Positions 33,970 through 45,618 of a stretch of 64,000 nucleotides of DNA are shown piece by piece. The position numbers were made by a program, and so were the translations under genes. A model generated the notes under the pieces. That model had not been told where the DNA came from. It made no database searches and saw nothing but the letters and a program-made list of their open reading frames with translations. The first letter of the stretch is position 1. Each line of letters begins with the position of its first letter. The DNA comes from Dokdonella sp. Its GTDB lineage: Bacteria; Pseudomonadota; Gammaproteobacteria; Xanthomonadales; Rhodanobacteraceae. The DNA is taken from contig JBDSXV010000089.1 in NCBI GenBank assembly GCA_039926025.1, positions 21,578 to 85,577 of the forward strand, in the 5' to 3' direction.

Positions 33970-34140
33970 GACACCATCCCCACCTAAATTCCCCGGCCGT
34001 CAGGCGCAGCCTTCGGGCGTTCATCGGCGCGCAGACCAGTGGTCTGCAAACACGCCTCTTCATCCCCTTGAAGGGAAGGACTTCAAAGCAGCGAGCTCAA
34101 GCCCTCCCCTTCAAGGGGAGGGTTGGGTGGGGATGGTGTC
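33970..34140. repeat. Nested palindromic (REP-like) element: 15-nt inverted arms flanking internal palindromes
   Basis: gacaccatccccacc (33970-33984) is the exact reverse complement of 34126-34140. Inside lie the hairpin gcagacc-agt-ggtctgc (34031-34047), tccccttgaaggga (34063-34076) and the perfect 21-nt palindrome ccctccccttcaaggggaggg (34102-34122). Confidence 0.65.
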
Positions 34141-41799: not shown

Positions 41800-42654
41800 T
41801 CAGTCGAAAAAAGTTTCGGCGGCTTCCAGCGTGTTTTCCATCAGCGTTGCCACCGTCATCGGACCGACGCCGCCGGGAACGGGCGTGATCCATGATGCGC
41901 GCTCCGCTGCGGCTGCGAACTCGACGTCGCCGACGAGCCGACCGTCGTCAAGTCTATTGATGCCAACGTCAATGACAACCGCGCCCGGCTTGATCCACTG
42001 CCCCTTGATCAGGCCGGGTTTGCCGGCCGCGACGACGACGATGTCGCCTTGTCGCACCTCTTGTTCGAGGCTTGCGGTGAATTTGTGGCAACCCGTCGTC
42101 GTGCAGCCTGCCAGCAGAAGCTCCAGGATCAACGGTCTGCCCACGTGGTTGGATACGCCAACGACGACCGCCTTGCGCCCGCGCACAGGCCTGTCCGTGT
42201 GTGCAAGCAGGATCATCACGCCCTTCGGTGTGCATGGGCGCAGACCCCGCTGGCGCAGTGCGAGGCGGCCAACGTTTTCGGCCTGGAAGCCGTCCACATC
42301 CTTGCGCGCATCGATGCGGTCGATCAGGGCCGTCGCATTGATGCCGGGTGGCACAGGCAGCTGCAACAGGATGCCGTGCACGTCAGGATCCGCATTCAGG
42401 CGATCGATCAAGGCAACGAGGTCGGCTTCCCTGGTGGTCGCGGGGAGGTCGAAATCGAGCGAACGAAAACCAACATGCTTGCACGACCGCCGCTTGTTGC
42501 GCACGTACACCGCGGACGCCGGGTCGGCACCTACCAGCACGACCGCAAGCCCCGGTACGCGCTTGCCGGCAGCAATGCGCAGCTTGACCCGCGCAGCTAC
42601 GCTGTCGAGCACGTCATCGGCGATGCGGCGGCCGTCGAGGAGTCGCGCGGTCAT
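41800..42654 (-). CDS. folD: bifunctional methylenetetrahydrofolate dehydrogenase / methenyl-THF cyclohydrolase
   Basis: 284 aa. [29 protein letters not shown], and [13 protein letters not shown]. Confidence 0.95.
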
Positions 42655-42746
42655 TGGGATCCCAGCGGTAAACGGGCATTATCCCATGTCGGCGTCTTCG
42701 CGCTCAAACCATCGTGCGACGGCGCATCCATCGCGAGGAGCGCAGC

Positions 42747-43046
42747 ATGACCGATCTCAACACTGAACTCGAAGCTGCAGCGTTCCGCCGCCTGCTCGAA
42801 CATCTGCGCACGCGCACGGATGTACAGAATATCGACCTGATGATCACGGGCGGCTTCTGTCGCAATTGCCTCGCCGATTGGTATCGCGAGGCGGCCGAGG
42901 CGCGCGGAATGGTGATGGAGAAGGACTCGGCGCGCGAACGCATTTATGGCGAAGATTTCGCATCGTGGAAGGCGAAATATCAGCCGGAGGCGACAACGGA
43001 GCAACTGGCTGCTTTCGCCGACGAGCAGCGAAAGCATCGCGGCTGA
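42747..43046 (+). CDS. DUF1244-family protein
   Basis: The start is MTDLNTELEAAAFRRLLEHLR. The GGFCRNCLADWY motif is characteristic of DUF1244. Confidence 0.8.
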   Translation: MTDLNTELEAAAFRRLLEHLRTRTDVQNIDLMITGGFCRNCLADWYREAAEARGMVMEKDSARERIYGEDFASWKAKYQPEATTEQLAAFADEQRKHRG

Positions 43047-43213
43047 AGCCGCTCCCACAGACGGTTGCTCCCACAAATTTCGATCGTTTTGAATATCGAT
43101 CGTTTCGATTTTCGATCGTTTTGAATTTCGATCGTTTCGATTTTCGATCGTTTTGAATTTCGATCCTGCGGAAATTCTGTTTCTGTGGGAGCGGCTTCAG
43201 CCGCGATGCTTTC
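43030..43213. repeat. 184-bp palindromic element: 31-bp perfect terminal inverted repeats enclosing six phased 16-bp repeats (TCGATCG cores)
   Basis: gaaagcatcgcggctgaagccgctcccacag (43030-43060) is the exact reverse complement of 43183-43213. Between the arms, TCGATC(G/C) recurs at 43080, 43096, 43112, 43128, 43144 and 43160, with alternating unit types (32-bp super-period). The arms cover the stop codons of both convergent genes. Confidence 0.9.
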
Positions 43214-44366
43214 AGGCGGATGCGCAGATCTGCACAACATCCTCGTAACCAGTGAACTGCGCTTGGGCTCCGCATCCAGGACACGCCGGATCGCGCGGCA
43301 GGCGCAGTTCGCGTGATGTTCCCGCCAACGCGTCGTAACACAGGAGCCGGCCAACAAGGGGGATGCCGATGCCAAGCAGCAACTTGAGCGCCTCATTCGC
43401 CTGGAACAGTCCGATGATGCCAGGCAACACCCCGAGCACCCCGGCTTCGCTGCAGTTGGGCGCTTCGGCAGCCGACGGCGGCTCCGGAAACAGGCATCGA
43501 TAGCAGGGTGAATCCTCGCGGCGCGGATCGAACACGCTGGCTTGACCGCTGAAGCGATGCACGGCGCCATAGATCAGTGGCAGGCCCAGACGCAGGCACG
43601 CGGCATTGAGCAGGTAGCGGGTGGAGAAATTGTCGGCACCGTCGATCACGACATCATGATCACGCAGTAGTTCTTCGACATTGGACGCCTTGATGCGTTC
43701 GGTGATGCTGTTGACGTGCACCGAGGGATTCAACGCCACCAGCGCGATGCGTGCGGATTCGGTCTTCGGCGTGCCGACGCGCGCGTCCGTATGAATGACC
43801 TGGCGTTGCAGATTCGATCGTTCGACATGATCGTCGTCGATGATGGTCAGTGATCCCACGCCTGCAGCAGCAAGATACAAGGCTGCCGGCGAACCAAGTC
43901 CGCCCGCACCGATCAGAACAACGCGCGCTGCCGCGAGACGAATCTGCCCGGCAATACCGACACCCGGCAATACCAGATGGCGCGCATAGCGCTCGGCCGA
44001 ATCCGCATCAAGCGCGCCCGGCTCCACGGCGAGACCTTCGGCCTTCCAGCGCGCAAAACCGCCTGTCACGGAAACGCTTCGCCTGTAGCCCAATTCACGC
44101 AAGGTCGCGACCGCAAGCAGAGATCGCTGCCCACTGCCGCAAATGGCGAGAATTTCCTGTTGCGGATCGGCCGCAATTGCGTGGATGCGCTGCTTGATCA
44201 AACCACGCGCGACCCCCACCGCGCCCGCCGCCATGCCGGCGGCGCGTTCGTCGTCTTCGCGCACATCGAGCAAGAGCGCGCCAGCGCGCTGGCGAGCATG
44301 CGCCTCGGCCGGAGTGATTTCCTGTACCTCATCAGCCGCAGACCCACGTTCGGATCGGATTTTCAT
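43212..44366 (-). CDS. moeB: molybdopterin-synthase adenylyltransferase with an N-terminal rhodanese domain
   Basis: The start is MKIRSERG (ATG 44364-44366). Rhodanese active-site loop CGSGQRS, then ThiF/MoeB fold GAGGLGSP...ERSNLQRQ, and two CxxC pairs (CYRC, CPGC). Confidence 0.85.
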   Translation of the reverse strand: MKIRSERGSAADEVQEITPAEAHARQRAGALLLDVREDDERAAGMAAGAVGVARGLIKQRIHAIAADPQQEILAICGSGQRSLLAVATLRELGYRRSVSVTGGFARWKAEGLAVEPGALDADSAERYARHLVLPGVGIAGQIRLAAARVVLIGAGGLGSPAALYLAAAGVGSLTIIDDDHVERSNLQRQVIHTDARVGTPKTESARIALVALNPSVHVNSITERIKASNVEELLRDHDVVIDGADNFSTRYLLNAACLRLGLPLIYGAVHRFSGQASVFDPRREDSPCYRCLFPEPPSAAEAPNCSEAGVLGVLPGIIGLFQANEALKLLLGIGIPLVGRLLCYDALAGTSRELRLPRDPACPGCGAQAQFTGYEDVVQICASA

Positions 44367-44370
44367 GTTT

Positions 44371-45618
44371 TCAGCAAAAACCTGACAGGGACTGGACTTC
44401 GACGACGGAACCGACAGCCAGTTCGCGCACATGCTCCGGCACCACGATCAGCACATCCGCCTCGACGACGCCGCGCAGCATGCCCGAACCCTGCCTCTGC
44501 AACGGCATCGCCCACCAGGCGCCATCATCACGCGCCTCGACCCTCGCGCGCAGGAATTCGCAGCGATCGTGTTTCTTCAGGACTGGAGTCGCAAGCCGCG
44601 CCTTCCATGTACCCGATCCACCCACATCCGCGCCCTGCATCGCCAGCAAGGCAGGCCGCACCAGCGTGAGAAACGTTGCGATGGTCGATACCGGATTGCC
44701 TGGCAGCGCGAACACGAGCGCGCCGCCGATATCACCGCAGAGCAGCGGCATGCCCGGCTTCATGCGTACTTTCCAGAAATGGATCTTCCCGAGTTCAGCG
44801 ACGACGCCCGGCAAAAAATCTGCCTCGCCCGCCGATACGCCACCGCTGCTGATGACCACGTCGCAACGGTCGGCCGCTTCGCGCAAGGCAACACGCAATG
44901 CGTCCGCGTCATCGCGCAGGTGTGCAACAGGCTCGGGTTCAATGCCCAATTCACGCAGCATGGCGCCGAGGGTGTAGCGATTGCTGTCGTGGATCTGGCC
45001 GTATGCAAGCGTCTGGTCCGGCGGTACGAGTTCGTCGCCCGTCACAAACAAGGCAACTCGAGGTCGACGCGCCACCTTCACCTGCGTGCATCCGCACGCC
45101 GCCAGGACACCCAGATGTGCTGGCCCGAGACGCGCGCCAGAACGCATCGCGACATCTCCAGCACGGTAGTCTTCGCCAGCCGGACGCACATTGGCGCCGG
45201 CCAGCTCGCCGGCGCAGACGACGATGTGGTCGCCGTCGATGCGCACGTTCTCCTTGATCACGACCGTGTCCGCGCCGGACGGCAACGGAGCCCCAGTCGT
45301 TATGCGCACACACTCGCCTGCAGCAAAGACGGGTTCGACGGGCGCGCCCGCGAGTACCGCACCTGACACGCGGAAGCACGTTTCGCCCTGGACGGGAAGT
45401 TCGCTGCCGCGCAACGCGTAGCCATCCATGGCGGAATTGGCGAATGGTGGTAGATCGTGGGGTACCAACATGTCCGCCGCGAGCGTGCGGCCGAGTGCGT
45501 TGTCGAGGTCGACCGACTCGGGCTGCATGCGCTTTTGCGCGCCGAGTTCGCGAACCAGCGACCGCGCTTCGTCGACGGACAACTGCGTCGCGAACTCAAG
45601 ATTTGTCGAGATCGGCAT
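44371..45618 (-). CDS. moeA: molybdopterin molybdotransferase
   Basis: The likely start is MPISTNLEFATQLSVDEAR. MoeA blocks are SAMDGYA, GADTVV, ISSGGVSAGEADF and GLPGNPVS. It overlaps the mobA 3' end. Confidence 0.9.
   Translation of the reverse strand: MPISTNLEFATQLSVDEARSLVRELGAQKRMQPESVDLDNALGRTLAADMLVPHDLPPFANSAMDGYALRGSELPVQGETCFRVSGAVLAGAPVEPVFAAGECVRITTGAPLPSGADTVVIKENVRIDGDHIVVCAGELAGANVRPAGEDYRAGDVAMRSGARLGPAHLGVLAACGCTQVKVARRPRVALFVTGDELVPPDQTLAYGQIHDSNRYTLGAMLRELGIEPEPVAHLRDDADALRVALREAADRCDVVISSGGVSAGEADFLPGVVAELGKIHFWKVRMKPGMPLLCGDIGGALVFALPGNPVSTIATFLTLVRPALLAMQGADVGGSGTWKARLATPVLKKHDRCEFLRARVEARDDGAWWAMPLQRQGSGMLRGVVEADVLIVVPEHVRELAVGSVVEVQSLSGFC

Follow-up and report, generated by a model that had tools for sequence, protein, structure and literature searches.

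The window, a stretch of 64,000 nt, comes from a genome of 4.42 Mb (a MAG of 259 contigs with 62.7% GC) that its named relatives place in Dokdonella, family Rhodanobacteraceae. Within it, a DUF1244 gene (42747-43046, plus strand) converges with a moeB-like gene (43212-44432, minus strand). The former is an ORF of 99 aa with a match to Pfam PF06844 (E 4e-33), and the latter encodes 406 aa comprising a rhodanese domain and a ThiF adenylyltransferase domain (Pfam Rhodanese, E 1.4e-11; Pfam ThiF, E 2.9e-78). The gap between these genes measures 165 nt and is wholly occupied by a repetitive element that extends into both coding ends. On one side, the DUF1244 stop codon TGA (43044-43046) lies within the left arm of the element; on the other, the stop codon of the moeB-like gene (43212-43214) overlaps the tail of the right arm by 2 nt. 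An earlier note on this DNA had described the element as filling the whole gap and meeting both stop codons, and the gap length and ORF coordinates bear this out.

At 32 nt each, the arms (43030-43061 and 43182-43213) are 100% complementary, and 120 nt separate them. The earlier note had claimed perfect terminal inverted arms and was correct about their complementarity, while its length of 31 nt falls one base short. Each arm is a full-length consensus REP with its GTGG foot pointing inward; the left REP is an inverted repeat on the minus strand that matches the family consensus, and the right REP is on the plus strand with its foot at 43185. In tandem with the left REP head lies a generic 16-nt REP foot unit (43059-43074, minus strand), which reads GTGGGAGCAACCGTCT on the minus strand, is identical at 15/16 positions to the genome-wide unit GTGGGAGCAACTGTCT, and has a match at C89:64628-64651. 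The remainder of the centre is an AT-rich 16-nt minisatellite (43072-43184, plus strand) of seven in-phase units, a copy number taken from one assembly, the MAG of 259 contigs. The units start at 43072, 43088, 43104, 43120, 43136, 43152 and 43168, the final one being 17 nt long, and the REP GTGG follows next at 43185. This spacer minisatellite is specific to the locus, and its 16-nt units keep register with the right REP's GTGG.

The repeat structure of the centre is far beyond chance. Tandem Repeats Finder returns a 16-nt array at 43076-43165 (5.6 copies, 86% matches) and a 32-nt super-repeat at 43078-43165 (2.8 copies, 98% matches). The six TCGATC sites start at 43080, 43096, 43112, 43128, 43144 and 43160, the final one reading TCGATCC, and their 16-bp phase and 32-bp super-repeat agree with what had been reported. 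Inner array units now read TTYGAWTTTCGATCGT. The last two units, TTTGAATTTCGATCCT and GCGGAAATTCTGTTTCT, have kept the ancestral ...CCTGCGG and ...TCTGTGG ends and in this respect are like the units of sister species. The first pair of units (U1-U2) and the second (U3-U4) differ by one base, which points to a recent 32-nt duplication, and the six GATC sites are accounted for by the duplication of one unit.

The REP family of the arms and its RAYT

The earlier note had called the arms REP-like, and this can be made more specific: both are consensus copies from a REP family that numbers ~330 and has a cognate RAYT. The REP 20-mer GTGGGAGCGGCTTCAGCCGC has 195 exact copies in the genome and 328 at two mismatches or fewer. 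A position matrix from 319 REP copies gives the consensus yCTGTGGGAGCGGCTTCAGCCGCGATGCTTT, which equals the arm. This 30-nt consensus includes the hairpin GCGGCT-TC-AGCCGC, its GTGG foot is conserved at 86-98% per position across the 319 copies, and CT or TT precedes the GTGG. Across the genome there are 147 occurrences of the arm's 26-nt core and seven of the exact 32-mer. D. soli carries 148 REP copies, mostly of a GTAG foot variant.

The RAYT gene (C234:349-963) encodes 204 aa with a PF01797 domain and the motifs DHWH and YVVLNP. Its product scores 119.9 bits against the NCBIfam equivalog NF047646, ‘REP-associated tyrosine transposase’, for which the cut-off is 80. REPs bracket the gene on both sides: of the four at 106-356, three are on the plus strand, and those at 926-1189 are without exception on the minus strand; those on the left mostly face the gene, and those on the right all do. 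A second Y1-transposase gene (C159:5838-6164; PF01797, E 7.7e-13) has no REP of the arm family within 3 kb, and may encode an IS200-type transposase or the RAYT of another repeat family.

The perfect match between the arms carries little weight in so numerous a family. Two random REP copies are identical over 32 nt with a probability of 0.0037, and among the 90 adjacent inverted pairs of the genome ~0.33 perfect pairs are expected and one was seen. We therefore attach no special significance to the perfect 32-nt arms.

The dominant REP doublet has its GTGG ends outward across a gap of 22-40 nt (61 pairs), an HH dimer that is REPIN-like. GTGG-inward pairs, or TT dimers, number 28 and have gaps of 14-263 nt; the studied element is among them, with 126 nt between its 20-mer cores. 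Other GTGG-inward pairs enclose repeats of their own. One dispersed repeat has a core of ~112 nt (...CAGCCCTCCCCTTCAAGGGG...GGGTGGGGATGG...) and at least 25 copies at 84-98% identity, often between GTGG-inward REP pairs (C101:8842-9020, C157:6706-6843, C108:3379-3489, C234:946-1082 and ~20 more); one copy lies in the window, at about 33971-34082 (C89:55548-55659). Another repeat, of ~103 nt, has eight copies at 76-84% identity in both orientations, at C136:15833-15935, C200:7675-7778, C103:200-304, C83:22275-22380, C211:183-288, C195:4283-4369, C61:9261-9327 and C259:56-125. Six of these eight are bracketed by GTGG-inward REP pairs, and the repeat may be a genuine REP-bounded composite. An Rfam search with the ~112-nt and ~103-nt cargo elements gave no credible match, only sub-threshold miRNA-hairpin noise. 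At C105:12010-12312, a GTGG-inward pair surrounds a 263-nt spacer of (CCGTG/GTGCC)n followed by (GAGCC/AAGCC)n tandem repeats, a further example of a spacer minisatellite.

Sixteen-nucleotide foot units at REP heads

This REP family is itself marked by a 16-nt period. Generic foot units, which are GTGGGAGCAACTGTCT-like, begin with GTGG and end in CT, stand in phase directly before 81/318 REP heads, with at least two units at 36 heads and a maximum of ten. Examples of such arrays are found in G000 at C87:25-140, C109:4477-4580, C193:14900-15030 (REP head at C193:15021), C23:13181 and C135:7200. The autocorrelation of head-side flanks peaks at lag 16 (0.301 vs 0.258 in controls) and again at lag 32. 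Among 41 genomes, tandem generic foot units are found only in this genome (92 matches) and in its closest relative, G019 (18 matches). The REP/RAYT literature cited here holds no description of 16-nt foot-unit arrays at REP heads. The ‘double-foot REP’ (PMC6006769) was considered as a match for the tandem units and rejected as a different structure: it carries GT[AG]G at one end and its complement at the other, within one REP.

The units of the studied array are identical to the generic foot unit at chance level, 2-5/16 positions, and we accordingly do not claim that the AT-rich units are directly homologous to either this unit or the 5' half of the REP. The link between them lies instead in the shared period, the shared phase and the GTGG-headed units of sister species. 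About a quarter of REP heads are preceded by foot-unit arrays, and by these three features the spacer is the local version of such an array, diverged in sequence. The family-wide arrays are a modest curiosity in themselves, and they could help to explain the remodelling of REP clusters by RAYTs or replication slippage.

The centre itself is private to this locus. Together with its non-repetitive flanks it has no other copy in the genome by fuzzy matching or by blastn at word size 9, and it was not found in 40 relatives, 24 of them congeneric. No exact match to the array pattern exists in ~185,000 species genomes or in metagenome contigs. The AT-rich unit is confined to the DUF1244/moeB locus in all four genomes compared.

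History of the gap and competing explanations

The convergent order of DUF1244 and moeB is conserved across the family, and in many relatives the gap between them is only 1-14 nt. D. soli has a gap of 14 nt despite carrying the REP family elsewhere in its genome. REPs at both junctions are shared only with the four closest relatives (MoeB identity 82-90%), and the interiors differ. Two of these lack an array: L035 (bin.414), with a gap of 193 nt, holds a third REP and a piece of another repeat, and L037 (metawrap_la5_23), with a gap of 69 nt, holds decayed REPs. The other two, L036 (bin.131; gap 68 nt) and L038 (bin.217; gap 132 nt), carry unequal numbers of AAATTCGATCCTGTGG-type 16-nt units, which share both site and phase with the array studied here. 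L036 has one to two units of the type AAAATTTCGATCCTGTGG. L038 has about six in-phase units (CACAAATTTCGATTCT, GTGGACATTCGATCGG, GTAGAAATCCGATCCT, GTGGAAATTCGATCTT, GTGGGAATGTGATACT and GCACGAGTTCGACCCT), four of which begin with GTGG or GTAG, and these lead directly into the GTGG of the right REP. GATC is present in 3/6 L038 units and in one L036 unit, and is absent from L035 and L037.

This comparison shows that the REPs entered the gap, until then almost empty, in the common ancestor of a small clade. The array is orthologous across three species, with a unit number that varies and units that have been homogenised within each array. An orthologous array of variable number and internal homogenisation indicates minisatellite behaviour rather than a conserved binding site. 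The locus offers a clean series in sister species, from an empty site through a REP dimer to a growing and diverging 16-nt spacer array. It also has some value as an illustration of a REP rewriting the end of a conserved gene, final codons and stop included. The DUF1244 protein ends here in KHRG*, and in REP-bearing relatives in ...HRG* or ...HHG*, encoded by the REP tail; REP-free relatives end in ...KHT* or ...KHS*. The left REP supplies the last two DUF1244 codons and the TGA (CGC GGC TGA), and the original end of the gene has been replaced by this REP, now the source of the stop codon.

The same convergent gap has been colonised independently elsewhere, in L048 (321 nt), L045 (95 nt), L044 (136 nt), L097 (172 nt) and L040/L047 (568-592 nt). 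The colonisers are a REP variant (GTGGGAGCTCCGGAAGGCGCGATGCG doublet), GGTGGGCCTTGGCCCACC palindromes, CTCTCCC...GGGAGAG palindromes or an extra ORF of ~190 aa. The DUF1244/moeB gap looks like a recurrent landing site.

We consider it about 80% probable that the element is a TT REP dimer, its GTGG ends inward, whose spacer is a 16-nt minisatellite amplified locally and in phase with the foot. One feature counts against this reading: the GC content of the array is 0.38, the lowest of all 28 GTGG-inward spacers (the others range from 0.43 to 0.67), and neutral decay does not obviously predict such a value. The earlier note had named an outcome that would count against its own reading, in which the arms recur in many copies without the core and the core is unique and unconserved, the product of chance slippage. 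This is essentially what the copy counts describe, except that the core is not a one-off chance product, as 16-nt REP-phased arrays occupy the same site in two sister species. The composite is probably non-mobile and is unlikely to have a dedicated sequence-specific function; the non-conserved interior and the near-empty gap in many relatives both argue against one.

In this lineage, the units lost their CTGTGG end to become TCGATCGTTTYGAWTW, after which a 32-nt double unit was duplicated again. Units may have multiplied through replication slippage on short repeats. Alternatively, the RAYT might nick at C|T just 5' of the foot and then transfer the strand, by analogy with related enzymes: the TnpA-REP of E. 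coli and S. maltophilia cleaves at CT (PMC8266576; PMC3333891), and in vitro TnpA-REP cleaves the linker at C|T, with strand transfer leading to linker variability and tandem amplification (PMC3333891). A stronger form of this idea, which we regard as doubtful, is that the 16-nt period was left as a footprint by the RAYT itself and not by polymerase slippage. Each generic foot unit ends in a C|T dinucleotide just 5' of the next GTGG, and repeated C|T nicking with strand transfer, or primed re-synthesis up to the hairpin, could add one foot unit per cycle. The DUF1244/moeB array would then be a decayed and subsequently re-amplified example. If this were true, foot arrays would preserve, in nature, the traces of local amplification driven by the RAYT, and the lineage would be a convenient system for RAYT activity in vivo, which has so far been hard to demonstrate.

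Of the explanations that compete with a REP dimer and its minisatellite spacer, the one that survives best is a selected bidirectional 3'-end module. Here, the long hairpin would end or stabilise both transcripts and prevent collision or antisense read-through, the array serving as spacer or loop. The element fits the convergent gap exactly and touches both stop codons, and RNA folding predicts a very stable 32-bp stem that closes the element on both strands (free energy -102 / -104 kcal/mol, z-scores -8.5 / -10.5). REPs are, moreover, reported as mRNA stabilisers and terminators and are concentrated in convergent gaps (PMC3733652; PMC3333891). However, there are no terminator-like sites at 42600-43600 on either strand and no U-tract after either arm, the stems being followed by AGGCGG (plus) and GCUGCU (minus). 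These results also lend no support to the bidirectional intrinsic terminator proposed in the earlier note. A gap of 1-14 nt suffices in many relatives, and in the four closest the spacer is entirely different and the arms are imperfect or decayed, which speaks against selection on the composite. We judge a selected module to be clearly improbable. A generic REP role, namely 3'-end protection, processing or attenuation of both convergent mRNAs, is plausible in light of the predicted fold, and any function is at most such a generic 3'-end RNA hairpin role of REPs. An Rfam search of the locus assigned no family and gave sub-threshold mir-22 noise alone.

The earlier note had also raised a methylation- or protein-dependent site, with the six phased TCGATCG motifs acting as iterated operators or a Dam-type switch. 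Such a site would fit a motif that contains a palindrome and recurs at exactly 16 bp, a super-repeat whose 32 bp make about three helical turns, and the unusual AT-richness of the island, and the genome has a D12-class adenine methyltransferase gene (C232:23703-24401, L034:1369-2322; PF02086). The product of this gene, however, scores 70.3 bits against the TIGR00571 dam cut-off of 114.85, and no Dam equivalog was found in the genome. The gene adjoins rdgC, and neither of the two ORFs that follow it matches a family; the methyltransferase may belong to a restriction-modification or orphan system. GATC occurs genome-wide at 8.4 per kb, an observed/expected ratio of 1.01, and the motif is nowhere else arrayed in the genome. 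Conservation argues in the same direction, with GATC in only half of the L038 units and none in L035 or L037. There is also no promoter nearby to regulate, the only match in a scan of 42600-43600 being at 42707-42678 (minus strand), upstream of DUF1244 and outside the element, and the IHF consensus WATCAANNNNTTR has no match in the 3.1-kb locus containing the element. Taken with the ordinary GATC statistics, these observations make a binding or methylation array very unlikely.

A MITE, in which the 184-bp unit with its 32-nt terminal inverted repeats would be a non-autonomous transposon, had been suggested as well and is less credible still. Small size, an intergenic position and perfect terminal inverted repeats are what one would look for in such an element, and recurrent cargo of ~103 and ~112 nt is indeed found between other GTGG-inward REP pairs of the genome. 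The composite and its centre are nevertheless single-copy across the genome, the 40 relatives and the two public collections. No target-site duplication is present, the flanks (...GAGCAGC | arm and arm | AGGCGGA) sharing no direct repeat. The junctions occupied by the two REPs do not vary across four species, whereas the interior does, indicating that the arms are older than the present interior. Finally, the MAG has 259 contigs, and many contig ends fall in REP clusters, but there is a negligible chance that mis-assembly of REP-rich short reads created the array or its copy number, since the array is ~90 nt long, lies inside an 88-kb contig with intact genes on either side, and has homologues at the same site in independent MAGs of sister species.

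What the locus mainly clarifies is that a striking palindrome with a GATC array consists of two ordinary REPs and a private minisatellite. As bacterial repeats go, the element is ordinary, with a single mildly unusual trait, and its annotation as a MITE, terminator or regulatory site should be avoided.

Comparison with known REP systems

The REP family of this genome shares its general organisation with the REPIN/RAYT systems described by Bertels and Rainey (2011, PMC3116915), including a cognate, REP-flanked RAYT, a predominance of tight inverted doublets, and tandem clusters. The studied element is in the opposite orientation to a REPIN, and nothing suggests that it is a replicative unit.

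The closest parallels in E. coli are the BIMEs. Like BIME-1 (RIP-RIB; PMC3333891), the element lies where transcription units have their 3' ends and has a relatively long linker between its two inverted REPs. Unlike the L linker of BIME-1 with its IHF site, the linker here is without an IHF consensus; there are no other copies of it, and thus no linker conservation among copies. BIME-2 and atypical BIMEs, together with their amplification by TnpA-REP (Ton-Hoang et al. 2012, PMC3333891), share with this locus a locus-specific linker sequence, copy-number variation and a C|T beside the foot. The amplified unit here differs in being 16 nt long and without a palindrome, and we infer the involvement of a RAYT.

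The element is most similar to the TT dimers of GTAG-tagged REPs, whose nomenclature we follow (Di Nocera, De Gregorio and Rocco 2013, PMC3733652). As in these and in the REP/BIME families of E. coli, Pseudomonas and Stenotrophomonas, the basic unit is a high-copy palindrome of ~30 nt with a 5' GT[AG]G foot that forms inverted dimers. REPs in that study concentrate between convergent and unidirectional ORFs and often provide stop codons; the preference for convergent gaps, the overlap with stop codons and the ability of dimers to fold separately or into one large stem-loop are shared with the element described here. Spacers of TT dimers are typically variable; those reported for REP dimers in general are mostly 20-100 bp long and either unique or conserved in sequence, and tandem reiteration in that study involves whole REPs or dimers with their flanks rather than foot-only units. 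At the DUF1244/moeB locus, the spacer itself is a 16-nt tandem array that keeps the register of the REP foot.
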